Assembly: GCA_000091205.1 (NCBI GenBank)
Contig: AP006490.2
Strand: one strand, 5' to 3'
DNA from: Cyanidioschyzon merolae
Taxonomy: Eukaryota
DNA: 64,000 bases
Of the stretch, positions 19,385 through 62,120 are shown in pieces (the stretch's first letter is position 1; every line of letters begins with the position of its first letter). The position numbers and the translations under genes are program-made. Below the pieces are notes generated by a model. It saw nothing but the letters and a program-made list of their open reading frames with translations. It did not search any database and was not told the DNA's origin.

Positions 19385-19590
19385 CGGGAAAGCGTCCATC
19401 ATGAAGCACCAGCCTTCAAGTTCCATTACCCATACTTCCTCTCGGATAGACTGGTCGTTACGTATATTCTATCGTGTGCCGAGTGTCTGCCTCGAGCACC
19501 CGCCATAGCGCTTATATACCGCTGAAGCAGGTGCTGCACGGAGACAGAACGGCGCTGCCGTACCAGTCAGGGCGTCGGCTCGAGGCGTGA
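19385..19590 (+). repeat. about 200-bp dispersed repeat R2, copy a
   Basis: about 85% identical to 24205-24400 ('atacttcctctcggatagactggtcgt...ctatcgtgtgccgag...gctgcacggagacagaacggcgctgccgtacca...gggcgtcggctcgaggcgtg'). Confidence 0.5.
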
Positions 19591-24204: not shown

Positions 24205-24400
24205 AGTATCCATCAAACCCCTACCTCCAATTTACATTTCCTATACTTCATCTCGGATATTCTGGTCATCTCACAAGTCCTATCGTGTGCCGAGCCTGCC
24301 GAAAGAGACCGCAATGGCGCGTGTAGCATCGGTGCGGTCGCTGCACGGAGACAGGACGGCGTTGCCGTACCACACAGAGGGCGTCGACTTGAGGCGTGGT
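24205..24400 (+). repeat. about 200-bp dispersed repeat R2, copy b
   Basis: see 19385-19590. Confidence 0.5.
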
Positions 24401-26189: not shown

Positions 26190-28950
26190 TTGCATTGCGC
26201 TCGGTGAGCACGCCTGGGAGATCCGGCAGGCATGAGACACGACGCACATGTTGCCGTTGAAGGGGAACGTGATCCTGATCTCTAGCATGTAGATCTAATG
26301 TAAAAGTTGTAATTTCTTTAACTTCATAGCCAAGTACAGTTTTTCAGTTCATTTTTGTTTCAAACCTCAAGTAAAAATATTCAATTGATTTTTAGCAGTA
26401 TATAATAGAAGCGTTCAAAGAGCGTCCTTTTTCACAAAACAAAAAAGGAAAGTCATGAAAAAGCAAGTTCACGATTCTAGAGGCCCAGGGTCGCCGGCTG
26501 CCAGAAAAAAACAAAAAACAGTGCCGAGTCCAGAAGAAAAGGAAGAGAAGAAGGACCGAAAGGGGAGGTCGTACGTCGAAGGCGGCAAGATAGACGGCTG
26601 TACGACGAGATGGTGGTGAAAACCTTTCTTCTTGGACATATCAAGGATCCCTACAGAGAAAAGTTGCGAGACGCTATCAAAAAACGTGTCGACTCATACT
26701 CCAAGAGTATTGTCAAGGCGTCGTCAGGACTGATGCATTTGGCGAGGGAGATGTATCGCGACGTGACGGACATGGAAACGGTCGAGATTCCAGACGAGTT
26801 CTTCGACAAGACCTTTATTCGTCAGCTGATGCTTGGTACAGAGGAAACGCGGAAGGAAAATGAGCGGGTTCACGCTCTTCACGAAAACTTCGCGGAATTC
26901 CGCTTCGAGAGTAATCGATACAGAGGTGATCGGGATATTTAGACATACGGAGCGAAAACGCACATCACGAGTCTGAAGTACCATTTGACAGTGAACCTCG
27001 AACGTTTCATGATACGCGCCGTGGTTGCACTCTACCCGGGCATCTCTCGCAAAGGAATATGGGCGATTATCAATGGCATCACGAAAGATCGTAAGCATGA
27101 AGATGAGATCGAATGCGTCGACAAGCAGGCGTCAAACGAGGGCACGAATGAGGATTCTGTAATCCGTGCGGCTAAACAAGAGCATCGTGCGGTACTGGGG
27201 CTGGCGAATCCAACAGACAAGATATCGGAGTTGAAAAAAGAAAGATATTATCGCCTCGTCCTGCTCTATTTCGTGTTTCTGGACCGAGAGCTCGAACGCA
27301 AAGCAGAGATGAAGCTGAGCGAAGAGATAAATGAAGAGTGGGAGAGACGGAAGGCTGTCCTAATGGGGAAGCGCTTCAACGTGGTTCCAATGTCAAATAT
27401 CAAGTCACATTTTGTGACGATCGACTCCAGAGTCCTTTATGGCATCATGAAGGAGATCAGTCCGGAGTTCGATGTTAGCAGGGAGGAGTTCACCAGCGGA
27501 AACCGGCAGACATGCTGGAAGAGTATCTTCGATTTCAAACGTCTCAAAGTCAGCAAACGAAAGGTATTCACTGGGATGATCGAGACCGATGGAGTAGCCT
27601 TGTGTGTACACTATCGGCGATTGAAGAAAGATCGTCCAGTTCCGCCCTCGGCTGCGCCTGTGACGAAGGATGCAGAAAACAAAGAGGAAGATCCTGCGAC
27701 GCAGGAGGTGGAGGATAACGACATTGTCGTTGACGTGACGAAGGATGAAGATGAGAAGGTGACGGATCCTGCGACACAGGAGGTGCAAGATAACGACCAT
27801 GTCGTTGATGCGGCGAAGCATGAAGATGAGAAGGAGGAGGATACCGCGACGCAGAAAGTGCAGGATAACGACTTTGTCGTTGACGTGGCGCAGCATGAAG
27901 ATGAGAAGGAGGCGGATCCTGCGGTGCAGAAAGTGCAAGATAACGGCTTTGTTGCTGGCGCGGACCCCGGGAATACGAATATCATCACCATCGCAGCACC
28001 GAGGCGTGCGGAAGATGGTACTGACGGTTCCTTGCGTCAGAAAGACTTGCGTCTTTTGAGGTTCTCGAGAGCAAGATACTATCGAGAATCGGGAATCATG
28101 AATGCGAGGAAGAAAATTCCTGCATGGAATGCAGGAATGAAGGATCACCTGGAAGCTTTGAGCGAGGTGACGAGCCGAGGAGCAGACTTTCAAGCTTTTC
28201 GGAAATTCATGGAAGTTCGCATTGCGCGTTGGCATGCACTGTGGGAGGAGTATACCAAGCCTCTGTGGGCTCGTCTGCGAATGAGTCTATACGGCGGGAG
28301 GCAGCGCGCGCTCGCGAACTTTTTCAATGAGTTGAGCGCACTCAAAGAGGATGAGAGTCAGAGGCTCGTAGTAGCATACGGAGCAGGGCGCTGGAAGACC
28401 CAAAAAGGGACTACGCCAGCTCCAACGACAAGAACTTACAAGGAGTGTGCAAGGCGTTTTGTTACGATACCTGTACATGAGTTTCGAACGTCCTATACAC
28501 ACCATGAACTGGGGTGTACACTTCAGAGGGTCGAGATGGAAAAGTGCCAACGGGGTCCTGAGGAAATAGGAAAGCACGGAGAGGTGACTGAGCAGCAAAT
28601 GGAAAGGAGGGCGAAAGTGCGAGGGCTACTTGCATTAGCAAATACAACCACTGATGGCAAGGAACGTATGGAGTTTGTGAATCGTGACCTTAATGCCGCT
28701 ATCAATATAAGGTGATGTGCGGTGCTCGAGAGCAGATCTCCAGAGTCGACAAAAGAAAACGTTATTGGCCAGCCTCTAAAAGTTGAACTATATGAGAAAC
28801 AATTGGAAGCAGTGGCAGGTGGCCGCTCCAAAAAGACTGGCAGCCATCAGCACGTCAGTTGGAGATGTCTAGCCTAGGGCGCGGTTGCCGCCACTACTGT
28901 ACCACAGGCAGCAACGTTTTTCTTTTGAAAGACGTTTGTTTCCAGGGGTA
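26190..28950 (+). mobile_element. Fanzor/TnpB-like (IS605 OrfB-type) element, copy A, about 2.75 kb
   Basis: Left end defined by alignment with copy D ('GCATYGCGCTCGGTGAGC...ATGAGACACGACGC...'), right end by shared '...GCAGCAACGTTTTTCTTTTGAAAG...'; AT-rich 5' leader; single nuclease ORF; lower GC than flanks. Confidence 0.6.
26610..28715 (+). pseudogene. Fanzor/TnpB-like RuvC nuclease gene, copy A (one in-frame stop at about 26943, N-terminal ATG lost)
   Basis: RuvC-I '[16 protein letters not shown]'; 'QRLVVAYGAGRWK'; degenerate Zn finger 'CARRFVTIPVHEFRTSYTHHELGCTLQ...EKCQ'; RuvC-III 'ERMEFVNRDLNAAINIR'; four about 23-aa acidic tandem repeats before RuvC-I. Confidence 0.6.
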
Positions 28951-29146: not shown

Positions 29147-31003
29147 ATGCTCGTGAAGGCTCCGCTTCCGACTGCTGAGGAGCTGCCGCAGGCCAAGGGC
29201 GCAGCGCACACGGTTGGGAGCAGCACGCCCACCGATGTGCAGGATACAGACCGTGCACTGGACCTGGAGAACCTGAACCTGGACTCCAACACGGAAGTGT
29301 CTCTGATAGCCGCGGACTTGCCCCCAGAAAGCGACGAGGGTAACACGGAGTACAAGCGGCAGCTGGTGCAGCCGTCACCCCAACGTTTCGCAGAGCTGGT
29401 GACACAACTCAAGTACCGCATGGCAGCGGGGCACGGGGAAGCTATGTACCAGCTAGGGTACGACGATGACGGACGCGCACGTGGTGTTCCAGAGGACGTT
29501 TTGGAGGCCTCAATTGAGACCGTGGAACGCATGGCTGCAGAGCTCCGAGCAGACGCCACCGTGTGGCGACGGGCTCGCGGACGCGACGGCTGGGTCGCAC
29601 AGCTGCTCATTCGAGCGCGACCGCGAAGCTGCGAAGAGTTTACGGATACTCGTATTTGTGTATCTGGCAATGTGGACGCGGGCAAGTCCTCTCTTCTCGG
29701 TGTATTGTGCGGAACCGGCCAACTCGATAACGGACGAGGTCTGGCACGAGCGCAGGTCCTGACACATAAACACGAGCTGGAGAGCGGGCGCACCTCGGCG
29801 ATTAGCATGCAGCTCATGGGATTCGACAGCGCCGGTCATGTGGTGAACTACACGAACGTTACCACGAATCGCCAGCTATCCTGGGCTGAGATCGTCACAA
29901 ATTCATCCAAACTAATCACGTTTTGTGATCTCGCCGGGCACGAAAAGTACCTCAAAACGACAATGTTCGGCCTAACGGCACATGCACCAGACTATTGTAT
30001 GATGGTCGTTGCCTTGAATCAAGGCGTGCTGCGAATGACCCAGGAACACTTTGCTATAGCACTTGCGCTCAAGATTCCAGTTTTTGTTGTTTTCTCCAAG
30101 AGTGACCTGGCACCTGCCAACGTTGCCGAGCATACCATCAGCGTCATGACGCGTATGCTCAAGTCGAGCGGTGCTCGCAAAATCCCCGTCCTGGTGAACT
30201 CCCTGGATGAGGTGAGCATCTGCGCGCGAAATATCCCGAACGACCGCATGGTACCGATGTTTGTGGTCAGCAATGTTACCGGAGCCGGACTCGATCTACT
30301 GCGAGCGTTTCTGAACCTGTTGCCATGGCGTCACGACTGGAACGAGCGGAAGAAGAGCGCTTTTGCCGAGTTCACCGTCGATGATCACTTCAGCGTACCA
30401 GGAGTTGGCACAGTTGTTTCGGGCGTGTGCCTGCGCGGTGTTCTCCAGCAGGGACAGAGCGTTTTTCTGGGACCCGATCGACATGGTCATTTCGCGCGCA
30501 TTGCGATCAAGTCCATCCACTACAAAAGGGTCCCTGTGCAGCGACTATATGCCGGTCAGTCGGGATCGTTGGCGCTCAAGAAAATTCGCCGTGAGCGTGT
30601 TCGCAAAGGCATGGTGGTGCTGAGCACCGCTGGCTTCTCCAACGGAGCCAAGTCGGGGTCGTCACCGGCAGCGTCCGGAAACGGGAATACGCCGACGACG
30701 CCCGTATCTGTCATCGAGTTCGAAGCGGATGTTGCGCTCATGTACCACAGCACGAGCGTCCGGGCGGGCTACCAACCGATCGTTCACTGCAGTACGATCC
30801 GGCAGGCCGCCCAGGTGACCTGGATGGATCGCGACGTGGTGCGCATGGGTGAGCGTGCACGCGCTCAGTTTCGCTTCCTCTACCGCCCTGAATGGCTCCG
30901 GGTCGGTGATCGTTTCTGTTTTCGTGAAGGAAGGACCAAAGGTATTGGTCATGTGACGCGCCTTGTGGAGTGCTGGACTCGTGACCTCATCACGATAAAT
31001 TGA
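29147..31003 (+). CDS. GTPBP1-family translational GTPase
   Basis: 'DEGNTEYKRQL' N-terminal signature of GTPBP1/2; G1 'GNVDAGKSSLLG', G3 'DLAGHEKY', G4 'SKSD'; beta-barrel domains 2/3. Confidence 0.8.
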   Translation: MLVKAPLPTAEELPQAKGAAHTVGSSTPTDVQDTDRALDLENLNLDSNTEVSLIAADLPPESDEGNTEYKRQLVQPSPQRFAELVTQLKYRMAAGHGEAMYQLGYDDDGRARGVPEDVLEASIETVERMAAELRADATVWRRARGRDGWVAQLLIRARPRSCEEFTDTRICVSGNVDAGKSSLLGVLCGTGQLDNGRGLARAQVLTHKHELESGRTSAISMQLMGFDSAGHVVNYTNVTTNRQLSWAEIVTNSSKLITFCDLAGHEKYLKTTMFGLTAHAPDYCMMVVALNQGVLRMTQEHFAIALALKIPVFVVFSKSDLAPANVAEHTISVMTRMLKSSGARKIPVLVNSLDEVSICARNIPNDRMVPMFVVSNVTGAGLDLLRAFLNLLPWRHDWNERKKSAFAEFTVDDHFSVPGVGTVVSGVCLRGVLQQGQSVFLGPDRHGHFARIAIKSIHYKRVPVQRLYAGQSGSLALKKIRRERVRKGMVVLSTAGFSNGAKSGSSPAASGNGNTPTTPVSVIEFEADVALMYHSTSVRAGYQPIVHCSTIRQAAQVTWMDRDVVRMGERARAQFRFLYRPEWLRVGDRFCFREGRTKGIGHVTRLVECWTRDLITIN

Positions 31004-31448
31004 GATGGAGTTGCGAAGCGGGCTGCAGCACATTTTGAGCAGCGCTCCAGAGAAGCTACGCTGGCGGTGGCACGCTTACCACGAATGCAGCGCAGAACGG
31101 TAATTGATGCGGGAAGCACGACGCTGTGAAGCTTTGTGTTGCATGATGCGGCATGTATCCGGGGCTTTGGTTGTGAGGAAAATGCGGGTTCAGGCGCTCT
31201 TGAGGCGTTGACAGTGCAAAGCATGTTCATTCGAGGTACATTGTCCGTGCGATATGGTTGCGGGCTCGCACATCTGGAGGAGGACTCTACGGGACTCGAG
31301 CTATCGGTGATGCAAGACCCGGGGGTACGAAAGCTAGCTGGCTAGCTAGCTGGCTGAGCGCCGAGGCCCCCTGCAGGACAACCTGGTGCATATTTGTGCA
31401 AGTCCTCGCAAATCGCTCGACAAGACATGCGGCCTCGTGTCTGGAACT

Positions 31449-32236
31449 GCACGCGTATCAGATGCCGCGGGAATACCAGACCGCTGGCTCTATTCCTGCT
31501 TTGCGATCTTTTCGGAGCCTGTTCAGACTTATTGTCTCTATTTTCAAATTTAAGCGATAAGGGCTTACGGATTCAGATGCAGTTCTAGGATGCTGTGTCG
31601 TCGTTTCGGAGACGTTCGTTCGAGTCTCTCTGCCACTGCAACTCGTTACGTCAGTGGAATCAAGATGCTACGCGGCATTCCGGAATGTGCGTTCGTAAAA
31701 TAACCGACAGCATGATGCCGTGCATGTGAGCAAGCTTCCGTGCTTCTTGTTGCTCCATGAAACACCGCCATGAACTCGTTCACATGGGTCATCGCAGCGA
31801 TAACTTCCAGCAGGGCGTGCGTCGACGTTTTGCATGAAGCGACCAGAGACGCATCGAAGTTTCGTGACGTGGTATCCAGCGTGGATTCCCATTCCTCTAC
31901 CAGTTCTATCATGGGCAACGTCGAGTTTCACAAATCCTCGGTCGAATTGAATGGAGCGTGCTTGCGCGTGCAGCTGGCACAGTGCTCGCCGAACAGATCG
32001 CCCAGAGGCGTCCCGTGATCACGGGGTACTCCAGCGGGCGCGGCAACGGAGCGGGGGCATCCACGGAATCCTTCCGTGCTCGTCGAGGGCATGGATCGAC
32101 TGTTAGCACAGGCGTTCATGTGTCACAGGGCGGTGTTCAGAAGAGGAGATGCGGCGAACGCGTGAGAACACCAGACCCCAGTCAAGCGCTGCGGATGCAT
32201 ATGGCGCACTGAGGCCGTCTACAACGAGAAATACAT
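31449..32236 (+). repeat. about 790-bp dispersed repeat R1, copy 1
   Basis: Near-identical (a handful of mismatches) to 48079-48856, same orientation, offset 16630 bp; ORF track shows identical short ORFs in both copies. Confidence 0.8.
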
Positions 32237-32709
32237 GGACCTAAACAGACAACATAGCACAGTTTGAAGCAGTCATGACGCGCCAACGTGCCGTGCGTAT
32301 GCGTCGCAGCAGCTCAGCGCCCAATGTTTTCCGCGTTACGAAATCGACGTTTCTTATCCTGGCAACCCTGGATGTGCGCTGGTTATCGATAGCTATGGAC
32401 GCTCCAGCGTAGACCGCCTCAGCGCTGGCTAGTAGACGCTATCGTCACGAGAGCGCCTACCGCCGCAGCACACTTGTTTGACAGATCTGAATCTTATTGT
32501 AACATTACGTATAAAAATATATCTTATGGTCACGGGTGCATTGCGGCGGCGGCGATCGTCGGCGTCGATGCCCCTTGTCTCCCGTAGCCTGCATCGGCAG
32601 CCTGTCTGGCGTTTGCACGAGCTTTGTTTCGAGCGCGCTGCACCACCCTAGGACACGAGGTGTCGACAACGTACCTCGTTCCGTGAGCAGTGTCTAGAGA
32701 TCGAACGTC

Positions 32710-33606
32710 ATGGCGTTCGTCAAAGTCGTCAAAAACAAGGCATACTTCAAGCGGTTCCAAGTCAAGCCTCGACGCCGGCGGGAAGGGAAGACTGACTACC
32801 ACGCTCGAAGGGCCTTGATCATCGTTGACAAAACCAAGTATAACACCCCAAAGTATCGTCTTGTCGTTAGGATTACGAACTCGGATGTGATCTGCCAGAT
32901 TGTAACGGCTCGTGTTGAAGGAGACAAAGTGATAGCAGCGGCGTACGCGCACGAGCTCCCTCGTTATGGCATCAAGGTTGGTCTGACGAACTTTGCTGCA
33001 GCCTATGCCACTGGTTTACTCGTAGCCCGGCGGACGCTGACGATTCTCGGGCTTGCCGATGCATACCAGGGTAAGGTTGAGGCGGACGGCGAGCTTTACC
33101 AGGTGGAGCCGGTCGGGGAGACCCGCCCCTTCCGAGCGGTGCTGGACGTCGGGCTCGTGCGAACGACGACTGGCCATCGGGTGTTCGCGGCGATGAAAGG
33201 CGCGGTTGATGGAGGAATCGATATTCCACACAGCGAGAAACGTTTCCCAAAGTATAAGAAGGGATCCGAGTTCGACCCTGAGGAGCTGAAAGCACGCATA
33301 TATGGTAACCACGTGGCCGACTACATGCGAATGCTACGAGAGGAAGATCCCGAAAAGTACCAGCGGCAGTTCTCTCGTTATATTCAAGCAGGAATTGATC
33401 CCGATCAGTTGGAGGACATGTATCGGGAGGCCCATCGACGCATCCGAGAAGATCCACGCGCGGTTCTAACCGACAAGTCTCGTGTAACGAAGCGCCCACG
33501 AAAGACACCTAAGTTGAGTCGCGAAGAGAAGCAGGCGCGGCTGGCGGCGCGGTTAGCAGCGCTCGCCCGCTCTGGCGCCACGGAATCGATGGTAACCGTT
33601 TCATGA
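32710..33606 (+). CDS. RPL5: 60S ribosomal protein L5 (uL18)
   Basis: '[59 protein letters not shown]...' nearly co-linear with eukaryotic RPL5. Confidence 0.95.
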
Positions 33607-46327: not shown

Positions 46328-47908
46328 TTAGCTGTTCGGCCAGGCAACTGGAATCCGCAGCCTCGCCAAAACCGCAGAATGATCCGAGAGCGAAAAGTCC
46401 TCTTCAGGAAAAATGCGGGTTCGTGCCGCCTCCGGCACCGTGTAGCGATAGATGCGCACCGCACCGTTTTCGTCGCCATGCGCTATAACGGGTCCCTGCC
46501 GCGGATCAAACAGCAAATAATCGATACACTTTCCGTCATCAGTGATGGGATGCATCCCGCTGTGGGCAAGGCTGACTAGGTCGACGACCTGGAGGGCAGC
46601 GCCTTGTCGCGGTGCGCTTCCAAAGCGCTGCATCAGCTCCCGATACCAACGACTTTCATGCGGATTCTCCGGCGAGATTCGGGCGTTGATGTTGAAATCG
46701 CCAGTGATGAGTACCGGCCCTGCGTCATCCGCGACCTTGCGTGCGATAAAGTCACGCATTTCCTCCGCTTGATGAAAGCGAATCTCGGCGTGGTAGGCCT
46801 CCGGTTCATAGCCCGGTCGATCACCTGCTTGCATGTGCGTGCTGAAGATATGCAAGTAGCGTGCATTGGTCTGGCTCTCGACCCGCTTCGCTTGAACTGT
46901 GCTTGAAGGAAACGCGGAGCGATTCCATTTGCGCGGGAAGTCGGCAGGCCAGTACACTGGCAACTCAATGCGCGCATAGAGCACGCCCTTACCAACCAGC
47001 GCGTCGATCGTGTGGTACACCACGTTTCGATAGTGAATATAGTCCCATGCAACGATCGGGAAACGGCTGAAGATGCTGACGCCTCCATCGACGAATTTCG
47101 GAGGTATGCCAAGGATCCGCTTTGGCAGATAGACATGGTGGCGCAGGCCGTATTCCTTGAGCGCCGCCTGCATGGCTGAACGGCGATTGCTGTAGGCATC
47201 AAAGAGCTCTTGGAAGCATATGATGTCGAAGGAGGCAAGCTCAGGGAGCAGAAGTTTGAGGCGCTCATCTTTCAAGTCGTCACCGCTGGAGCCGGACACA
47301 CCTGGCGGCCGTACGCATATATTGTATGAGAGGAGGCGTACCGGCAGGCCCCGGCTACATACGTCATCCAACGCCGGGTCGGCGAAGAGGCGCGCTCTGT
47401 GCTGCCGCGCCACAGCGATGTATTCGCGGGTCCGGCGTCGATAGCTGTTCACCAACGTTGCTGCACCGAGCAGGAGCAATGCAAGGCCGAACGCCAGGGC
47501 AACAATATTCACCTTGGTCCGGTGAGTCTGCAAAAACCCTCTGCCACCACCAGTATTCGACAGGAAAAAATACGCAGCACCAGAGTCGAGAAACGCTTCG
47601 CTCGAGTCGCTATTCGCACGTGCTCCGAAGTACACAAGACCCAGGCTTGCGGCAGGTAGAGTTAACATAAGAACAGGAAACAGCTTGCGCACACTGACGC
47701 CAAGAAGTGTGGCCTTTCGCACCTGCTGGAACGAGAAGAACAAGGCCAGCAGCAGCTCAGAGATAACGGTGACGCCAAGTGCGAGCCAACAACCTCTTTG
47801 TGTTATCCACTTTCTCCACCAGGTGCTCCAACGTTCCACAGCATGAGACACAGCCGATGCTAATCCAATGCATACCTGAGTTGCATATGTACTCGCATCT
47901 GATTCCAT
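46328..47908 (-). CDS. EEP-superfamily phosphodiesterase, neutral-sphingomyelinase-like, two N-terminal TM helices
   Basis: 'LLSYNICVRPPG...FDIICFQELF' and 'ITGDFNINAR' EEP catalytic motifs. Confidence 0.5.
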   Translation of the reverse strand: MESDASTYATQVCIGLASAVSHAVERWSTWWRKWITQRGCWLALGVTVISELLLALFFSFQQVRKATLLGVSVRKLFPVLMLTLPAASLGLVYFGARANSDSSEAFLDSGAAYFFLSNTGGGRGFLQTHRTKVNIVALAFGLALLLLGAATLVNSYRRRTREYIAVARQHRARLFADPALDDVCSRGLPVRLLSYNICVRPPGVSGSSGDDLKDERLKLLLPELASFDIICFQELFDAYSNRRSAMQAALKEYGLRHHVYLPKRILGIPPKFVDGGVSIFSRFPIVAWDYIHYRNVVYHTIDALVGKGVLYARIELPVYWPADFPRKWNRSAFPSSTVQAKRVESQTNARYLHIFSTHMQAGDRPGYEPEAYHAEIRFHQAEEMRDFIARKVADDAGPVLITGDFNINARISPENPHESRWYRELMQRFGSAPRQGAALQVVDLVSLAHSGMHPITDDGKCIDYLLFDPRQGPVIAHGDENGAVRIYRYTVPEAARTRIFPEEDFSLSDHSAVLARLRIPVAWPNS

Positions 47909-48078
47909 CAGTTCTAGTTGGCTACAAAGGATATTACGGCTTAACGGAATCCATGGTTAACGCGGCTATCATGGTGTTCCGGAAGGTCGGCTCCGATCCA
48001 GAGCCGCAACCCGCGATCTGGACGGCGCGATTTGATCCGTTTTGTTCGCCGATCGTTGCGCGATCGTCAACGGTATCT

Positions 48079-48856
48079 GCACGCGTTTCAGATGCCGCGG
48101 GAATACCAGACCGCTGGCTCTATTCCGGCTTTGCGATCTTTTCGGAGCCTGTTCAGACTTATTGTCTCTATTTTCAAATTTAAGCGATAAGGGCTTACGG
48201 ATTCAGATGCAGTTCTAGGATGCTGTGTCGTCGTTTCGGAGACGTTCGTTCGAGTCTCTCTGCCACTGCAACTCGTTACGTCAGTGGAATCAAGATGCTA
48301 CGCGGCATTCCGGAATGTGCGTTCGTAAAATAACCGACAGCATGATGCCGTGCATGTGAGCAAGCTTCCGTGCTTCTTGTTGCTCCATGAAACACCGCCA
48401 TGAACTCGTTCACATGGGTCATCGCAGCGATAACTTCCAGCAGGGCGTGCGTCGACGTTTTGCATGAAGCGACCAGAGACGCATCGAAGTTTCGTGACGT
48501 GGTATCCAGCGTGGATTCCCATTCCTCTACCAGTTCTATCATGGGCAACGTCGAGTTTCACAAATCCTCGGTCGAATTGAATGGAGCGTGCTTGCGCGTG
48601 CAGCTGGCACAGTGCTCGCCGAACAGATCGCCCAGAGGCGTCCCGTGATCACGGGGTACTCCAGCGGGCGCGGCAACGGAGCGGGGGCATCCACGGAATC
48701 CTTCCGTGCCCGTCGAGGGCATGGATCGACTGTTAGCACAGGCGTTCATGTGTCACAGGGCGGTGTTCAGAAGAGGAGATGCGGCGAACGCGTGATGACA
48801 CCAGACCCCAGTCAAGCGCTGCGGATGCATATGGCGCACTGAGGCCGTCTACAACG
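48079..48856 (+). repeat. about 790-bp dispersed repeat R1, copy 2
   Basis: see 31449-32236. Confidence 0.8.
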
Positions 48857-49842
48857 GAGATGAATACAGCAGGCGTGGCGTGGATCGCAACTTGCTGCTT
48901 TGCACGAAATGCGTGAAAAATCACCCAAAGCAGCGGAATCGGGATTTGGACCATGCCATCGACACGCTGCGACTGTTGACATCGGAGCTGGAGGGTGGGG
49001 AGAGATCGGTGTATTTAAAGGCAGGGGAAAAGAGAAACAGAAAACAGGGGTCTCAGAACAGGCGCACAAAGGCTGATATTGATGGCCTCGCGAAGACGAG
49101 ACACAACCTTAGTCGTACACAACCGAGTCAGAGGGTACGACCCTTTCTATTTCATCCTGCTATGTACATAGAACAGTGTCGATTCTTCAGCACCAGACCT
49201 GAATAGATTCGATTTAGCGTTGAGCGCGTCTAGTGACGGGCAACGCCTACCGTCCACGACACCAAGATTGCGTTTTACGATCTGGGACAGAGGTCCTGCG
49301 GACTAGACACGTCCGCAGGGCTCGTGCTGTGTGCGCCACCACGGCAGCGACTGCAGAGGCGGTGCAGGCGCAGTCCCAATGCAGCGCATCTCAGTCAGGC
49401 TGACCCCGCTGGAACGAGGGAGAGTGGCGTCTCCATCGTCGCCGGGATTTCTCCAGCATACCGCTCCGTGCAGCCAGCACGAGATCTGCATGCACCAACG
49501 GTTTGGTCCTAGGAAGAAGTCGAATTCTGCCCTTGAATGGTATCACTCACTCCAGAATCCGAAGGCTGCGATGTTTCGCAAAGCCGCAGTATCACCAGGG
49601 TATGACCGCGACGACGCGTAGCGTAGCGCAGCGAGCGCGCACGGCAGGCTCCTGTTCAAGGAGGCTGCAGGGTCCAGCGTACATATTCTCCTCAGAAACA
49701 CTGCTCTACGGTTGAAGTAAGCAGAAACGTATTTGCAGCGATAAAATCTCTTCCAAATTCACCAGCAGCGTCTACGTACCTCAAAGAATCCGGTTCAAAA
49801 TATCCATCTCATTGCTTGATAACATTCAAACGAAACTTTTTG

Positions 49843-52152
49843 ATGCTCTTTGCACATGAGGCAACCTGTCGAAGCGCGTCGCAGATGCACACAGCCGGAT
49901 CGACATATTACCGGAAGCGCTATTCCGCTTCGTGGCGCGAGAACAGAGCGGCTGGTTTGTGGACGTGGCTGCGGATGTCGGTGGACCCCCAGACGCGAGT
50001 TTTGGTCGATGAGCTTCATAGACTGGGATTTGTTGTAGAACCAGCTGCTGTTTACTTGCTGCAGGAACGATTTTGCTCTGATCTTGAGCTTAGTCTTCTG
50101 GATGAAGAGGAACGAGTCGCGGCACTAGCAAGCCTTGTGCAGCGCTTGCGGGAAACTGCACTCGAGCAGGGAACGCGAACAATATCCACGGAGGCAGTGG
50201 AGCGAACACTGAAACTGGGTTCAGGCGGCAGTTTCGGAACGGATCGGAGTGGGACTGGCGCTGGCATAACGAAACACGGGCGCGTGAACGTGGCGAACGG
50301 GTGGAAGCTCCATGTTACCCGAGAGTTGAAGGAAACAGACTTGCTGCAACTGCCGCCCATAGCCAAACGCAGGGAAGCGCTAGCGTTTCGATATCAGACG
50401 CTTTACAAAGATCTTGAGCGTTGTTTGCAGATATCTGCTCTACGTAGGGAAGGTACAACACAGGAGAGTCCCTGGCCAAGGCAAGTCGTTCCTGTTGGCG
50501 TTTTGCGATCTGCCCGTGCGAGCGAAAACCGCCTGCAGATCGTGATGGGCATGCTCAGTGCTCAGGGTGTGGATGAGTGGTTGCTCGAAGATCCGACTGG
50601 ATCGATCGCTCTTCGGCTACATGGAGAACGTTCTGCTGTGGACGATTACCGGCTCTGTGGCACGAAATCGTGCTCGCTCGTGTGCGCAGGATGTATGCTC
50701 GTTGTAATTGGCGTTTACGACCCGATAGGAGATGCGATTGTCGTGCGCGAGCTTCGACAACCTCCGCTTTGTCCTGACTGGAGCATGAAGTTGCTGCCGC
50801 TGGAAGAGACTCCGGAATCATCAGCACCGCTGAGCCATGCGGGCGACCTGAGATTCACTGGGACCACAACTCTGGATGCTTCGCTGGACGCGCACGCCAG
50901 CGATTGCTCGGTCAGGTTGCCTCACCCAGAGTCACCGCAGGTAATGGATGCTTCTCGCGGGAATCTATTGGCCGCGAAGGATTTTCCTGAGGTACATGGC
51001 GACGTATCCGTGGCGCAGGAATTACAAGGCAATGTATCTCTTCCTCGAGCGGATCCTGAGAGCGAGGTCGAATCCCTGGACGACCCGGACGGCGAACTGC
51101 ATATTCTGTTTGCGGCCGATTTGGCCCTTGATGACAGCACCTCGTACGCAAAGTGGCGAAAGCTGCTCAGGGAACTCTACCTACCGAACGAAGCCTCAAC
51201 GATGCAGGGGACGAGCACACTGCCTCCGACCGATGAAGCGGCCGAACACCCTTCCAGGCCAGAGGCCTCCTTGCCTCACTGCATTTTTGTCCTTTGCGGG
51301 CCATTCCTAGGTTCAAAATGCATGTCGTGGCCGCCAGTCACGGAGCCTGCCCATGAAGATGCACCAACGGCTGGTGCTGTGCAAGGCGAGTCCTCGCTCA
51401 CGCCGAACGAGCAAGCGTTGCTTCTGGCTTTGCGACGTTTTGGGAAGATGCTGGCAGCGTTCCGAGCCCCATTGCGGTCGTCTGGCTCTGAGTTCATTCT
51501 GATCCCAGCGGAGCGGGATATGGATTGCTTTGGTGAGGTGTTGCCGCGGCCGCCTCTGTCGAACCTCTTTGTGGAAACGTTGAGAGTGCATAGTGGACTC
51601 CGAACTGAGCAGATCCGCACGCTCTCGGATCCAGCACGATTCGATGTGCTGCGGGGAGAGCGCTGCCGCTACAGCGTCCTCGTCCACGCAACGGAACGCC
51701 TGTGTGAACGTCTAGCTGCAGAAGCACTTCCATGGCCAGCGGAACGTGAGCAGCGCAACTACGCTGCGGATATGCAGCAGTTCGCTTCCAATGTTTTCCG
51801 CACGATTCTTCACCAGCGTCATGTCGCCCCGTTGCCTGTATACAAGCAGCCTATATTTTGGACGTTTGACCGGCAATATTTATGGACGCTCACAGACCCT
51901 AACCGTTTTGTTGATTTTCTCGTGCTCGCCGACAATACGCTTCCGTTGTGCATGGAGACATATGCAGTTGGCGGCTTCGCATCTCTCGCGGGCGGTCTCG
52001 AACCCAGCATGGTTCTCTGCATTGCCCCGGGAAGCTTTTCACGTGATGGAACTGCAGTATGGATTCGGCTTACTGGTCAGGCGCAGCAGCGTATTCAGCC
52101 ACGATCGCTGCATCTCGTTGCAGGGCAACAAGCAGAGCCGAGCGACCTGTAG
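49843..52152 (+). CDS. hypothetical large protein (no recognised domain)
   Basis: Long uninterrupted ORF; track start 49816 is TTG; first ATG 49843, true start may be later (MSVDPQT). Confidence 0.3.
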   Translation: MLFAHEATCRSASQMHTAGSTYYRKRYSASWRENRAAGLWTWLRMSVDPQTRVLVDELHRLGFVVEPAAVYLLQERFCSDLELSLLDEEERVAALASLVQRLRETALEQGTRTISTEAVERTLKLGSGGSFGTDRSGTGAGITKHGRVNVANGWKLHVTRELKETDLLQLPPIAKRREALAFRYQTLYKDLERCLQISALRREGTTQESPWPRQVVPVGVLRSARASENRLQIVMGMLSAQGVDEWLLEDPTGSIALRLHGERSAVDDYRLCGTKSCSLVCAGCMLVVIGVYDPIGDAIVVRELRQPPLCPDWSMKLLPLEETPESSAPLSHAGDLRFTGTTTLDASLDAHASDCSVRLPHPESPQVMDASRGNLLAAKDFPEVHGDVSVAQELQGNVSLPRADPESEVESLDDPDGELHILFAADLALDDSTSYAKWRKLLRELYLPNEASTMQGTSTLPPTDEAAEHPSRPEASLPHCIFVLCGPFLGSKCMSWPPVTEPAHEDAPTAGAVQGESSLTPNEQALLLALRRFGKMLAAFRAPLRSSGSEFILIPAERDMDCFGEVLPRPPLSNLFVETLRVHSGLRTEQIRTLSDPARFDVLRGERCRYSVLVHATERLCERLAAEALPWPAEREQRNYAADMQQFASNVFRTILHQRHVAPLPVYKQPIFWTFDRQYLWTLTDPNRFVDFLVLADNTLPLCMETYAVGGFASLAGGLEPSMVLCIAPGSFSRDGTAVWIRLTGQAQQRIQPRSLHLVAGQQAEPSDL

Positions 52153-54821: not shown

Positions 54822-55353
54822 AACATTCATGTGATATCGATTGCATAAATTGGATATAAAGGCTTGTTGGCGTCCGCTCCCACGCGCAGTTGGACAATCA
54901 TGACTTTAGCGTATATTTATGTATTAAACGGACACACTTCTCTGCATTCCGTTTTGCGGCTCTCCGCATGGGTGTCGATCACGGCTAGGCGAGCCCATTC
55001 CGAGCAACTAGGCGTCAATCGCTGGCGCTGCGACCCACGGACTGATAGGACGCGCTTTAGACAGAATGGCCCATTGTCTTGCTCCTAGCGCGCTGCGTGC
55101 CGCGTCTCCATACGCGTCGGACTCGTCGCGGCAACGTTGCGAAGACCCGTCGCCTCCGCGGCTGTTCGTTTTGTACACGGCAGAGCGGCGACTCGGTCCT
55201 GGACCATGCGCGTGATGCCTGTCGTCGCCCCGCAAAACGGCTGTCTCTCTAAGCGCTACACGTTTGCGCATTGTTTGCGTGTCGGCATGACGCGCAACTG
55301 GCAGAACAGCGCCGTATAGCACTCGCACAGACGCGAGCGTGGACAGAAAAGCA

Positions 55354-55422
55354 GGTACAGGCATAGGTACAGGCATAGGTACAGGCATAGGTACAGGCAT
55401 AGGTACAGGCATAGGTACAGGT
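55354..55422. repeat. 12-bp tandem repeat (GGTACAGGCATA) x about 5.7
   Basis: Direct observation; right palindrome arm has only about 1.5 units (59098-59122, inverted). Confidence 0.9.
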
Positions 55423-55620
55423 GTGGGCTCCAGGTCGGCCCCGGAGAAGGAAGCGTGTGCAAGTACCATGGCGGCTAAAAATCGTTCGCAAAATATCACT
55501 TTATAGGCATCGAGGCTACGCATCAACGCACGGACGATCACTCACTCGCTTTCCATAGGTCGTATCCTTCCTCCATTGCATCCGGTCTTCCTTACATCAA
55601 GGCTTTCACCGCTCTCCGCT

Positions 55621-55914
55621 TTAGTTCCCCTGGAACTTTTCCTTGGTGGCATCTGCTGCGTGCTCTATTCCTTTCTTCGCAGACTGACCGGTTTCCTTCA
55701 GGTGATCCACTGCATCACCCGCCTTGTCTTGAGCTTTCTCCTGTGCGGACTTTTGCCCGGTGAGATCACGGAACTTGTCAGAGATCGTCTCCTTCGCCGA
55801 TGAAAACGCACCAGTGACAGACTCTTTCGCAGAATCCAAAGCGCCACCCGCTTTCTTCTCCGTATCTTTGAGAGCCGACTGTGCTGAGCTTGTATCTTGA
55901 GCTCCGGAAGACAT
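55621..55914 (-). CDS. small hydrophilic LEA/CsbD-like protein (97 aa)
   Basis: 'MSSGAQDTSSAQSALKDTEKKAGGALDSAKESVTGAFSSAKETISDKFRDLTGQKSAQEKAQDKAGDAVDHLKETGQSAKKGIEHAADATKEKFQGN'; paralog at 58606-58899. Confidence 0.5.
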   Translation of the reverse strand: MSSGAQDTSSAQSALKDTEKKAGGALDSAKESVTGAFSSAKETISDKFRDLTGQKSAQEKAQDKAGDAVDHLKETGQSAKKGIEHAADATKEKFQGN

Positions 55915-56019
55915 ATCACAATTTATAATGCTTTCGTAAACTCGAAAAATGCATATGCAAATGAGGTACCACGGCGCGCGCGGTGGCCGCACAGCCACAA
56001 ACACAGGAGATTTTACCGC

Positions 56020-57366
56020 AACAGGACCCGCACGCACCGCAGTTTGAAAGTCGAACGACGGCGGTGTACAGTAGCGGCGAACGATGCGCCCTAGACGACG
56101 TCTCCAACTGAGGTGCAGACGCCTCCCGGCCTTTTTGGACCGGCCACCCGCTACTGCTTCCAACTTTTTCTCAAATAATTCCACTTTGGGAGGTTGTCCA
56201 ATAACGTTCTCTCGTGGCAACTCTGGAGGTCTGCTCTCGAGCACCGCACATGTCGTTATCTTGATAGCGGCGTTAAAGTCTCGGTTCACAAACTCCATAC
56301 GTTCCGTGCCATCATTGGTTGTACTTACTAATGCAAGCAGTCCCCGAACTTTCGCCCTCCTTTCCATTTGCGCTTCCGTCAGCGGTCCGTACTTTGCTAT
56401 TCCCTCAGGGCTGCTCCGACACTTTTCTATCTCGACACTTTGAAGTGTACACCCCAGTTCATGGTGTGTATACGATGTTCGGAACTCATCTATCGATATC
56501 GTAACAAAACGTCGTGCACACTCTATGTACGTTCTCGTCGTTAGAGCTGGTGTACACCTTTTTTGGGTCTTCCAGCGCCCTGATCCGTACGCTACTACCA
56601 GCCTTTGGCTCTCGTCCTCCTTCAGGGCGTTCAACTCATTGAAAAAGTTCGCGAGCACGCGCTGCCTCCCACCGTATAGACTCATTCGCAGACGAGCCCA
56701 CCGGGGCTTTGTATACTCCTCCCGTAGCGCCTCCCGATGAGGAACACGAACTTCCATGACTTTCCGAGAAGCTTGAAAGTGTGCTCCGCGGCCCGTCACC
56801 TCGCTCAAAGCTTCCAGGTGATCCTTCATTCCTGCATCCCATGCAGGAATTTTCTTCCTCGCATTCATGACTCCCGATTCTCGATAGTATCTTGCTCTCG
56901 GGAACCTCAAAAGACGCATGTCTTTCTGACGCAAGGAACCGTCAGTACTATCTTCCGCACGCTACGCTGCGCGATGGTTATGATACTCGTATTCTCAGGG
57001 TCCGCGCCAACGACAAAGCCGTTATCTTGCACTTTCTGCACCGCAGGATCCGCCTCCTTCTCATCTTCATGCTGCACCACGTCAACGACAAAGTCGTTAT
57101 CCTGCACTTTCTGCGTCGCGGTACCCGCCTCCTTCTCATCTTCTTGCTGCGCCACGTCAACGACAAAGTAGTTATCCTGCACTTCCTGTGTGGCAGGATC
57201 CGCCTCTTTGTTTTCTGCATCCTTCGTCACGGGCGGAGCCGAGGGCGGAACTGGCCGATCTGTCTTCAACCGCCGATAGTGTACACACAAGGCTACTCCA
57301 TCGGTTTCGATCATCCCAGTGAACAACTTTTGTTTGCTGACTTTGAGCCGTTCGAAACTGAAGATA
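56020..57366 (-). pseudogene. Fanzor/TnpB-like nuclease element, copy B (5'-truncated; 3' boundary approximate)
   Basis: Encodes from '[22 protein letters not shown]' through RuvC-I 'VVGADPENTSIITIA', 'LVVAYGSGRWK', Zn finger and 'FVNRDFNAAIKI'; no stop before downstream LEA-like ORF. Confidence 0.55.
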
Positions 57367-58570
57367 TTCTTCGTTGGGATGATCGAAACCGATGGAGCAG
57401 CCTTGTGTGTACACTATCGGCGGTTTCAGGCGGATCATCCAGCTCCGTCTTCGACTTCGCCGGGACGGAGCATGAAGCGAAGAAAGAGGCGGATCGTGCC
57501 ACGCAGAAAGTGCAGGATAAAGAATTTCCCATTGACGCTACGAAGCATGAAGATGAGATGGAGGCGGATACCGCGACGCAGGAGATGCAGGATAACGACT
57601 TTGTCGTTGGCGCGGACCCTTGGAACACGAATATCATTGGCATGGCTGTACCCAAGCGTGCGGAAGATGGTATCAACGACAGCCCATTTCAGAGAGACAT
57701 GCGTCTGTTGAGATTCTCGAGAGCAAGATACTACCTAGAATTGGGAATCATGAATGCAAGGAAGGAAATTGAGGCATGGAATGCGGAAGTGAAAGAGCAT
57801 CAGGAAGCTTTGAGCGAGGTGACAAGCCGAGGAGCGGGCTTTCAAGCTTTTCTGAAATTCATGGAAGTTCGCATTGCGCACTGGGATGCATTGTGGGAGG
57901 AGTATACAAAGCCCCGGTGGGCTCGTTTGCAAATGAATCTATACGTTGGGAAGCAGCGGGCCTTCGCGAGTTTTTTCAATCAGTTGAGTGCCCTGAAGGA
58001 GGATGAAAATCAGAGGCTCGTAGTAGCGTATAGAGCAGGGCGCTGGGCGCCCAAGAAAGGCACTACGCCAGCTCCAACGACGGGGGCGTACAAGGAGTGC
58101 GCACGGCGTTTCGTCGCGATACCGATAGATGAGTTCCGTTCGTCCTATACACTCCATGAACTGGGGTGTACACTTCAGAGAGTGGAGATGGAAAAGTGCC
58201 AACGGAGCCCTGAGGAAATAGCAAAGTACGGACCTCTGACGGAAGAGCAAATGGAAAGGAGGGCGAAACTTCGGGGGCTACTTGCATTAGTAAGTACAAC
58301 CAGTGATGGCAAGGAACGTATGGAGTTTTTAAACCGAGACTTTAACGTCGCTATCAATTTAAGGAGATGTGCGGTGCTGGAGACGAGACCTCCAGAGCTG
58401 ACAAGAGAGAACTTTGTTGGACAACCGCCCAAAGTAGAACTATATGAGAAAATATGGAATCAGTAGTAGGTGGCCGGTCCAAAAAGGCTGGGAGGCGTCT
58501 GCACGTCAGTGGGAGATGTTTCGTCTAGGGCGCGTGCTTCGCCACTATTGTACACCGTTGGCGTCGTTCG
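57366..58570 (+). pseudogene. Fanzor/TnpB-like nuclease element, copy C (5'-truncated; 3' boundary approximate)
   Basis: '[17 protein letters not shown]' ... 'VVGADPWNTNIIGMA' ... 'LVVAYRAGRWA' ... 'EFLNRDFNVAINLR'; stop at 58466. Confidence 0.55.
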
Positions 58571-58605
58571 AGTGCGAAAGGTGTTCCCTTAGCGTCGCAG
58601 TGACA

Positions 58606-59417: not shown

Positions 59418-62120
59418 GCATCGCGCTCGGTGAGCGTACCCGGGAGATCAGGCAGATATGAGACACGACGCGCATGTCGCCGCTGAAGGGAAACGCGATC
59501 CTGACCATTCGTTGACGTGTTGTTCTAACGTAAAACTTGTATTTGCATTGGAATCGTAACAGAATATATTGTTTCATCTCAGTCGTGTTTCAACCTTCAA
59601 GTAAAAATACTCGAGCGCTTTTTCGCGGTTTAGAGCAGAGACGTTAATAGTGCGTTCTAAATCAAAAAAAAAAAACTAAAAAAGGAAAGTTCTGGACAGC
59701 GAAGTGGAGGACCCTGGAGGGTCAGTATCGCTGGCAGGCGAGAAAAAAGGAGCAAAAGAGCCAAACATAGAAGAACGAGACAAGACGAAGAAGCAGACGG
59801 GGGAGGTCCTACGTCAATGGCTGCAAGAAAGACGACAGTACGACGAGATGGAGGTGAAAACCTGTCTTCTCGGCTATAGCAAGGATTCGTAGAAGAAAAA
59901 ATTGCGAGAGTCCATCAGAAACTGTGACGAGTCGGACTCCATGAGTTTTCGTAAGACTTCTTTAGGAATGATGCATCTAGCGAGGGAGATGTATCGCGAC
60001 GTGACGCACATGGAAACAGTCGATGTTCCAGAAAAATTTTGCAACAGGAACTTTATTCTTCACCTGATGCTTGGTACAGGGGAAACATCGAGGAGAAATG
60101 AGCGGGTTCACGCCCTCCACGAAAACTTCGCGGAATTCCGCTTCGAGGGTACTCGGTACAGAGGTGACTCGAATATTTACATATACGGGGCGATGAAGTA
60201 CCTCACGAATCTGAAGAACCATTTGACAGTGAACCTTGAACGTTTCATGAGACGCTCGGTGTTTGCACTCTACCGGGGCATCTCTCGCACAGGAATACGG
60301 GCGATTACCAATGGCATCACCAACGAGCACCAGAATGAAGATGAAGTCGAATTTGTCGACAAGAAGGCGTCAAACGAGCGCACGAATGAAGCCTCTGTAA
60401 TCCGTGCGGTTATACAAGAGCGCCGTGCAATCTTGGGGTTGGCGGATCCAATAGACAAGATACCAGAGTTGAAAAAAAATATAAGGAAAGACACTATCGC
60501 CTCATCCTGCGATATTTCGTGTTTTTGCACCGAGAGCCCGAACGCAGTGCGCAGATGAAGCCGAGTGAGGAAAAAATATGAAGAGTGGGAGAGACGGAAA
60601 GCTTTCCTAATGGGGAAGCGCTTCAACGTCGTTCCAATGTGCAGCATCAAGTCACATTTTGTGACTGTCGACCCAACGTACGTTACAGCAAATTGAAGGA
60701 GATCTGTCCGGAGTTCAATGTAAGGAAGACAGAGTTCGCCGGTGAAAACCGGGAGACGTACTGGAAGAACATCTTCAATTTCAAACGGCTCAAAGTCAGC
60801 AAACAAAAGTTGTTCACTGGGATGATCGAAACCGATGGAGTAGCCTTGTGTGTACACTATCGGCGGTTGAAGACAGATCGGCCAGTTCCGCCCTCGGCTC
60901 CGCCCGTGACGAAGGATGCAGAAAACAAAGAGGCGGATCCTGCCACACAGGAAGTGCAGGATAACGACCTTGTCTTGACGTGGAGCAGCATGAAGATGAG
61001 AAGGAGGCGGATACCGCGACGCAGAAAGTGCAGGATAACGACTTTGTCGTTGACGTGGTGCAGCATGAAGATGAGAAGGAGGCGGATCCTGCGGTGCAGA
61101 AAGTGCAAGATAACGGCTTTGTTGCTGGCGCGGACCCCGGGAATACGAATATCATCACCATCGCAGCACCGAGGCGTGCGGAAGATGGTACTGACGGTTC
61201 CTTGCGTCAGAAAGACATGGGTCTTTTGAGGTTCCGGAGAGCAAGATACTATCGAGAATCGGGAGTCATGAATGCGAGGAAGAAAATTCCTGCATGGGAT
61301 GCAGGAATGAAGGATCACCTGGAAGCTTTGAGCGAGGTGACGGGCCGCGGAGCACACTTTCAAGCTTCTCGGAAAGTCATGGAAGTTCGTGTTCCTCATC
61401 GGGAGGCGCTACGGGAGGAGTATACAAAGCCCCGGTGGGCTCGTCTGCGAATGAGTCTATACGGTGGGAGGCAGCGCGTGCTCGCGAACTTTTTCAATGA
61501 GTTGAACGCCCTGAAGGAGGACGAGAGCCAAAGGCTGGTAGTAGCGTACGGATCAGGGCGCTGGAAGACCCAAAAAAGGTGTACACCAGCTCTAACGACG
61601 AGAACGTACATAGAGTGTGCACGACGTTTTGTTACGATATCGATAGATGAGTTCCGAACATCGTATACACACCATGAACTGGGGTGTACACTTCAAAGTG
61701 TCGAGATAGAAAAGTGCCAGAGCAGCCCTGAGGGAATAGCAAAGTACGGACCGCTGACGGAAGCGCAAATGGAAAGGAGGGCGAAAGTTCGGGGACTGCT
61801 TGCATTAGTAAGTACAACCAATGATGGCACGGAACGTATGGAGTTTGTGAACCGAGACTTTAACGCCGCTATCAAGATAACGACATGTGCGGTGCTCGAG
61901 AGCAGACCTCCAGAGTTGCCACGAGAGAACGTTATTGGACAACCTCCCAAAGTGGAGTTATTTGAGAAAAAGTTGGAGGCAGTAGCGGGTGGCCGGTCCA
62001 AAAAGGCCGGGAGGCGTCTGCACCTCAGTTGGAGACGTCGTCTAGGGCGCATCGTTCGCCGCTACTGAACCACTGGCGGCAGCGTTTTTCTTTTGAAAAG
62101 CGTTTGCTGCTCGGGGTGCT
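59418..62120 (+). mobile_element. Fanzor/TnpB-like element, copy D, about 2.7 kb
   Basis: Both ends align with copy A; right end 12 bp upstream of the CysRS ATG. Confidence 0.6.
59704..62068 (+). pseudogene. Fanzor/TnpB-like RuvC nuclease gene, copy D (at least 3 frameshifts/stops; GTG at 59704 in ORF track)
   Basis: Fragments 59704-59892, 59902-60558, 60585-61229, 60980-62068 are co-linear with copy A; retains '[16 protein letters not shown]', 'LVVAYGSGRWK', 'FVNRDFNAAIKI'; 1-nt deletion near 60975 and homopolymer indel near 60480. Confidence 0.6.

Follow-up and report, generated by a model that had tools for sequence, protein, structure and literature searches.

The stretch of DNA considered here, 64,000 nucleotides of Cyanidioschyzon merolae contig AP006490.2 (assembly GCA_000091205.1; hereafter the window), carries two near-identical copies of a short intergenic sequence that we call R1, most likely on chromosome 8 of the nuclear genome of strain 10D. 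The long open reading frames (ORFs) of the window correspond to eukaryotic housekeeping genes without introns, among them RPL5, eIF3a, UCH and a mitochondrial carrier, and those around R1 follow one another in the order RPS15, GTPBP1, RPL5, NUDIX, MRPS28, UCH, carrier, FKBP, PCO_ADO, Exo_endo_phos and PolB. The same gene order holds across the whole region in Cyanidiococcus yangmingshanensis (two assemblies) and in a third Cyanidiophyceae lineage. One copy of R1 lies between the GTPBP1-like gene and RPL5 (locus 1) and the other in the divergent spacer between Exo_endo_phos and PolB (locus 2). The intergenic setting described in the original prediction is thus borne out, at the distances given in Table 1.

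By repeat search and local alignment the two copies match over 779 bp without a gap and with five mismatches (99.36% identity; copy-against-copy blastn E-value 0.0). They stand in direct orientation with a start-to-start spacing of 16,630 bp, and differ (copy 1/copy 2) at 31457 (A/T), 31497 (T/G), 32080 (T/C) and 32166–7 (GA/TG). A near-identical direct pair had been noted before with slightly different coordinates; the earlier ends trace to a weak gapped extension, about 10 matching bases past the right end of R1, which reaches 32235 in copy 1 and 48868 in copy 2. The homology of this extension is not clear, and it could reflect either microhomology at the junction or chance. Beyond the ends of R1 we found no homology: local alignments of 100-bp and 300-bp flanks score at the level of shuffled sequence, and for this reason the boundaries can be called sharp. 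With unique sequence on both sides, R1 is a discrete unit and not the core of a larger decayed duplication, a candidate that the shuffle-controlled flank alignments reject. A blastn search at word size 7, with both entire intergenic spacers as queries, found exactly two copies in the window and no partial copies or fragments elsewhere in it. The original prediction had considered that these might be the only two copies and that they might belong to a larger segmental duplication collapsed by assembly. The first point stands as far as the data reach; the second does not, as the flanks are unique and independent assemblies repeat the same arrangement.

The pair is not peculiar to one strain. The exact sequence of an 88-aa ORF within R1 is on record in 73 blocks of a public-assembly index, and the 10 places displayed (24 contigs read) fall into three arrangements: GTPBP1-R1-RPL5, Exo_endo_phos-R1-PolB, and a recombinant of both. 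When the JGI metagenome collection was scanned for exact 28-mers, three matches came up: both loci on a single Yellowstone contig of 118 kb, and locus 1 on a second contig. A good many contigs from short reads and from Logan stop at the edges of R1, as they would at any repeat exceeding the length of the reads, which confirms the repeat behaviour of R1 in independent data. No third location was found in the assemblies examined, which comprise metagenome and read-archive assemblies of C. merolae-like strains. R1 is present at both loci in all metagenome strains sampled, with no empty site in any of them, and the duplication is therefore older than the split between 10D and the metagenome strains. 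We take this to be the split between Italy and Yellowstone, 10D being of Italian origin.

Outside C. merolae, R1 was not detected by blastn or nhmmer in the syntenic regions of Cyanidiococcus and the third lineage; since no intergenic DNA aligns there at all, its absence is not separable from divergence. The spacer at locus 1 measures 1706 bp in C. merolae, 737 bp in Cyanidiococcus and 1134 bp in the third lineage, and that at locus 2 measures 2066 bp in C. merolae and 1680 bp in Cyanidiococcus, lengths that are compatible with an insertion at either site and hence ambiguous. A horizontal or viral origin was rejected on the basis of exact 23- to 28-mers, none of which occurs in 185,579 prokaryote genomes or in IMG/VR, a scan that detects near-identical sequence only.

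The evidence for exchange between the copies comes from 16 variable sites within R1, tabulated against the identity of the flanks across strains. Position 11 is a fixed difference between the loci in all strains, but positions 51 and 720–721 are polymorphic at both loci. At position 51, contigs with the locus-1 flank have T in 10D, L002 and L010 and G in L001 and L015, while those with the locus-2 flank have G in 10D, L013 and L016 and T in L003, L012 and L019. The same holds at the right end, where positions 720–721 read GA in 10D, L002, L004 and L010 and TG in L001, L003 and L015 next to the RPL5-side flank, and TG in 10D and L016 and GA in L012 and L013 next to the PolB-side flank. Unique sequence begins 51 and 59 nt away from these sites. 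Reads and assembly k-mers are longer than that, and the linkage of the sites to the flanks is therefore not an artefact of assembly. The interior haplotypes of R1 are moreover swapped between the loci when 10D is compared with the 118-kb Yellowstone contig. In the variant table, copy 2 of 10D shows two mismatches against Yellowstone copy 1 and five against Yellowstone copy 2, and copy 1 of 10D shows four against Yellowstone copy 2 and five against Yellowstone copy 1; cross-locus distances (2–4 mismatches) are thus smaller than the orthologous ones (5). At locus 2, one and the same Yellowstone flank haplotype is joined to two right-end haplotypes of R1 that differ at four sites within 40 bp, which looks like a conversion tract.

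Because a single duplication copies a single haplotype, polymorphism common to both copies needs a later transfer between them, and non-allelic gene conversion is the simplest explanation of the pattern. A gene-conversion tract had been among the candidates originally put forward for the pair, and as the cause of the likeness between the copies it is supported by the polymorphisms shared between the loci and by the swapped interior haplotypes. Homologous recombination in C. merolae is highly efficient, and pop-out between direct repeats has been obtained experimentally (PMC8504449); conversion between the R1 copies therefore fits the biology of the organism.

Table 1. Features at and around the two R1 loci (positions in the window)
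Feature	Position	Strand	Remarks
R1 copy 1	31447..32225	+	GTPBP1-like/RPL5 spacer; same locus in every C. merolae-like contig spanning the locus
R1 copy 2	48077..48855	+	Divergent spacer between Exo_endo_phos (-) and DNA polymerase subunit B (+); same locus in Yellowstone contigs L012, L013 and L016
R1 position 11	31457 (paralogous 48087)	.	Locus-specific fixed difference in all strains: A at locus 1, T at locus 2
R1 position 51	31497 (paralogous 48127)	.	T/G segregates at both loci
R1 positions 720-721	32166..32167 (paralogous 48796-7)	.	GA/TG segregates at both loci
Weak gapped similarity past right boundary	32226..32235	+	AGA--AATACA against GAGATGAATACA at 48856-48868
Sole locally stable predicted hairpin in R1, 118 nt	31576..31693 (and 48206-48323)	+	-45.5 kcal/mol; z = -2.53, 3/200 shuffles as good
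GTPBP1-like GTPase gene	29147..31003	+	Left neighbour of copy 1; Pfam GTP_EFTU domains; protein shares 100% identity with one of strain 10D; ends 443 bp before copy 1
Ribosomal protein L5 gene (RPL5)	32710..33606	+	Right neighbour of copy 1, start 484 bp past R1; Pfam Ribosomal_L5e, 2.8e-80
Exo_endo_phos (sphingomyelin-phosphodiesterase-like) gene	46328..47908	-	Pfam PF03372; start codon 168 bp from copy 2 left end
DNA polymerase alpha/epsilon subunit B gene (PolB)	49975..52152	+	Pfam DNA_pol_E_B; 1119 bp past copy 2; 725-aa gene call in L012

The third of the arrangements mentioned above bears on recombination between the copies. In contigs from two Yellowstone samples, L003/L014 (12,986 bp; JGI 3300050377, Ga0506613_00120) and L019 (JGI 3300050370, Ga0506604_000384), Exo_endo_phos is joined to RPL5 through a single R1 (48076|R1|32226). 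Such a junction is what one would expect if the 16.6-kb block between the copies (RPL5, NUDIX, MRPS28, UCH, the mitochondrial carrier, FKBP, PCO_ADO and Exo_endo_phos) had been duplicated in tandem or excised as a circle; alternatively, an assembler could have mis-joined contigs through the 779-bp repeat. The reciprocal junction, GTPBP1-R1-PolB, was not seen among about a dozen R1-spanning contigs, all of them from assemblies; it would delete RPL5 and seven other genes, and would be lethal. That the pair is an active recombination substrate in nature we regard as doubtful on these contigs, but if true it would mean that copy-number variants of a block of housekeeping genes, mediated by the repeat, occur in natural populations of an alga with a minimal genome.

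Relative to 10D, the metagenome strains show a divergence of about 0.4% in coding sequence and of 0.3–2.7% in spacers. For the 118-kb Yellowstone contig, we counted 10 mismatches in 1558 positions of R1 (0.64%) against 44 in 2214 positions of its immediate flanks (2.0%), a threefold difference (p = 4e-4, Fisher's exact test). The other spacers of the region gave 18 mismatches in 3561 positions (0.5%) and coding sequence 50 in 11871 (0.42%). Since R1 diverges as much as these do, it is the flanks that look unusually variable and not R1 that is unusually conserved, and the contrast is no evidence of function. The four spacer segments concerned (31004–31446, 32226–32709, 47909–48076 and 48856–49974) are some 3–4 times more diverged than R1, other spacers and coding sequence (0.4–0.6%), which could reflect relaxed constraint or recombination-associated mutation. 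One of them also holds a 46-bp indel (about 32420–32465, upstream of RPL5) with the imperfect short direct repeats TAGACCGCC and CTACCGCC at its borders; 10D and L015 have it and L001 lacks it, and a break in the alignment at the same position in most other metagenome contigs suggests that these, too, are without the 46 bp.

Considering these data together, the balance tips, if only modestly, towards R1 being a lineage-specific, non-coding, low-copy repeat of two copies that arose by one ectopic copying event and was then homogenised by gene conversion. An orphan 779-bp intergenic piece would have given rise, once, to a copy in another intergenic site at a distance of 16.6 kb, before the Italian 10D and the Yellowstone strains diverged. 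The copy would most plausibly have been made as a templated fill-in during the repair of a DNA break, or else in some other one-off ectopic event, such as a single movement of an element that defies classification. Since then, the population data suggest, non-allelic gene conversion has held the copies at about 99.4% identity by way of the organism's efficient homologous recombination, and the conversion tracts would stop short of the outermost 11 bp or so, where the one locus-specific difference remains. R1 itself probably has no function of its own, and its main effect would be to serve as a recombination substrate across a 16.6-kb block of housekeeping genes.

Several points weigh against this account. 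The strain data are metagenome assemblies, in which linkage may be chimeric where a site is more than about 100 nt away from its flank, and for this reason only sites within 60 nt of a flank were used. The sampled strains offer no empty site from which to read the direction or mechanism of the duplication, and the intergenic DNA of the nearest sequenced relatives is unalignable. The two-copy count applies to the window and the assemblies examined, and more diverged copies of R1 may lie elsewhere in the genome. Finally, the threefold lower divergence of R1 relative to its flanks could reflect constraint.

A possible alternative, though not a probable one, is that R1 belongs to some unclassified type of low-copy, non-autonomous mobile element and was placed at one or both sites by transposition. 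R1 is indeed a discrete unit with sharp ends that are identical in both copies; both copies sit in intergenic spacers, and the GTPBP1-RPL5 spacer is longer in C. merolae than in either relative. Missing hallmarks are also not decisive in this genome, where elements without terminal inverted repeats (TIRs) or determinable target-site duplications (TSDs) are known (PMC3627910). Nevertheless, the recently mobilised non-autonomous element suggested by the original prediction finds no structural support. The ends of R1, CTGCACGCGT... and ...GTCTACAACG, are not mutually inverted and no terminal inverted-repeat pair was found. Inspection of the junctions revealed neither matching flank repeats nor terminal repeats at either copy, which rejects a TIR DNA transposon or miniature inverted-repeat element. 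A short interspersed element or a fragment of a non-LTR element (one lacking long terminal repeats, LTRs) was rejected for want of a TSD, of an A-rich or simple-repeat tail at either end, of a tRNA or tRNA-like head (ARAGORN), of any Rfam match and of any Pfam reverse-transcriptase or endonuclease domain. The terminal bases, CTGCAC... and ...ACAACG (in reverse complement CGTTGT... and ...GTGCAG), are without the 5′ TC and 3′ CTRR ends of a Helitron, and the bases flanking them differ between the copies; a Helitron was rejected on these grounds. Beyond structure, no third location was found, no ORFs related to those of R1 occur among 15 billion proteins, and both copies are fixed in all strains without insertion polymorphism.

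Among known elements, a solo LTR resembles R1 in its similar size, direct orientation, lack of coding capacity and known role as a recombination substrate. R1 differs in having no TSD of 4–6 bp at either copy, and a TG...CA reading of its ends would need both boundaries to be shifted; the DNA between the copies consists of conserved syntenic host genes, and a solo LTR was rejected. LTR elements have been reported to be absent from C. merolae (PMC1955436). The same genome does contain CMe-1A, a Fanzor1-bearing element of about 3 kb with 150–253 copies, and TE-N2_CMe, of 635 bp and about 70 copies (PMC3627910, PMC1955436), the latter reportedly 95% identical to the 5′ end of CMe-1A (PMC3627910). 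Neither has TIRs or determinable TSDs (Bao and Jurka, PMC3627910), in which both are like R1, and TE-N2_CMe is also of similar size. The likeness ends there: R1 has two copies where these have tens to hundreds, and its copies are 99.4% alike where theirs are about 80% alike. Kinship was rejected, as blastn at word size 7 found no match between R1 and the Fanzor copies of the window (26192–28949, 55225–58571 and 59418–62117) and alignments of the termini score at background, a comparison made with these window copies and not with the Repbase consensus; in ends and body alike, R1 is unlike them. An undescribed type of transposon without TIRs or TSDs is less likely than a natural recombination substrate.

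The Fanzor elements of the window merit some remarks of their own. The original prediction held R1 to be far more similar between copies than any other duplicate in the window, which proved wrong: two inverted Fanzor (CMe-1A-like) segments, 56066–57372 and 60764–62070, lie about 3.4 kb from each other and reach 97.9% identity over 1308 bp (99% over 905 bp of these), while the remaining Fanzor copies are just 78–87% alike. The likeness of the inverted pair points to gene conversion acting locally or to an inverted duplication of recent date, the former being the same homogenising process as that proposed for R1. Both 10D and Yellowstone C. merolae-like strains carry the element at 26192–28949, which has RPS15 on one side and the GTPBP1-like gene on the other (a 543-aa DUF8286-like ORF in L026). 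Judged by interval length, it is apparently missing from the same syntenic interval of about 1.2–1.8 kb in Cyanidiococcus and the third lineage (L021 8839–10001, L022 8185–10001); it would be a lineage-specific insertion. Tandem units of 75 bp, in 3–4 copies that are 74–85% alike, occur in the ORF regions of the Fanzor elements (27644–27963 and 57002–57231). The window also contains a further small dispersed direct repeat (19400–19589 and 24211–24398; about 190 bp, 73% identity, 4.8 kb apart) that is unrelated to R1 or to the Fanzor copies.

It is unlikely, in our judgement, that R1 is a functional non-coding unit, for instance a gene for a long non-coding RNA or a module with a regulatory or promoter role, kept alike by selection together with conversion. 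A protein-coding role was rejected by every test applied. The ORFs wholly within R1 are, as first described, short (90 aa at most) and free of motifs, with no Pfam match above threshold. The codon-usage log-odds, trained on 13 genes of the window, is negative in all six frames and for every R1 ORF, against +0.12 to +0.19 for real genes. The 88-aa ORF is the one that metagenome gene callers predict; an exhaustive HMMER search of 1.84 billion representative proteins found no significant homologue beyond itself, the single other match listed being marginal and repeat-like (E = 9.5e-4). In a word-indexed search an 84-aa ORF matches solely its own 98%-identical allele, from the R1 of another sample, and NCBI annotation was found for none of the seven R1 ORFs.

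A known RNA was likewise rejected. Rfam gave no match at gathering scores in the whole window and none in R1 up to E = 10, ARAGORN found no tRNA genes, and the fold prediction shows nothing unusual for the whole element (z = -0.12 for the plus and +1.83 for the minus strand), so that the duplicated non-coding RNA locus first envisaged is without support. Windowed folding yields one predicted hairpin (Table 1), picked post hoc among 20 sub-windows and with z = +0.67 on the opposite strand. This signal is weak and not significant for 20 windows, and we claim no function for it; it contains no variable sites, and with R1 copies that are nearly invariant there is no covariation signal to read. The thought of a telomerase-RNA template, prompted by one 8-mer, CCCATTCC, spotted by eye, was dropped, as about 0.2 chance matches are expected by our own estimate.

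What speaks for a functional unit, apart from this hairpin, is the lower divergence between strains of R1 than of its flanks and the position of the copies: both are in plus orientation upstream of a plus-strand gene (RPL5 and PolB), and copy 2 is also close upstream of the start of the minus-strand gene Exo_endo_phos. The divergence of R1, however, equals that of other spacers and of coding sequence, neither Cyanidiococcus nor the third lineage showed anything detectable in its syntenic spacers, and the distance to the downstream gene differs between the copies (484 against 1119 bp).

Mis-assembly commonly arises at repeats that exceed the reads in length. Nevertheless, an artefactual duplicate, or one at the edge of a larger segmental duplication that the assembly collapsed, is extremely improbable and effectively refuted by independent assemblies, since both copies appear with the same unique flanks in the independent 118-kb Yellowstone contig and in many other samples, the flanks are without residual similarity, the genes on either side of both copies follow the conserved syntenic order of Cyanidiococcus, and the 10D genome is a finished, gap-free sequence (PMC1955436).

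If R1 is the two-copy repeat homogenised by conversion that we favour, the pair is of interest mainly because of the organism in which it resides. C. merolae is a model alga with a minimal, almost repeat-free and fully finished genome, in which genes are targeted by homologous recombination, and a natural pair of repeats that exchange sequence would show that ectopic recombination also shapes its genome in nature. In practical terms, the pair marks a place at which contigs assembled from short reads of these algae end or are joined wrongly, and targeting constructs or primers placed in either R1 spacer face two homologous targets.

Two known phenomena invite comparison. Templated insertions at repaired double-strand breaks in yeast and mammalian cells resemble R1 in that a discrete genomic piece is found in an intergenic site without a TSD, TIRs or other transposon features, and the possible, imperfect microhomology at the right junction of R1 would fit with this, although it is without statistical support. 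Reported templated insertions are usually shorter than R1, from tens to a few hundred base pairs. Low-copy repeats that undergo non-allelic gene conversion and homologous recombination have been described in the yeast and human genomes. R1 differs from these in being very short and non-coding, in residing in the extremely compact, repeat-poor, haploid genome of an alga, and in having a founding duplication that was neither tandem nor embedded in a larger block. As a phenomenon this is familiar, and what is new is the instance alone; R1 is otherwise an ordinary low-copy repeat with no sign of function. Like its yeast and human counterparts it consists of two direct copies of high identity in unique flanks a few kilobases apart, with polymorphisms that are shared between the paralogues and do not cluster by locus in the metagenome assemblies, an extreme edge that escapes conversion, and contigs that carry the Exo_endo_phos-R1-RPL5 junction to be expected of an unequal exchange.

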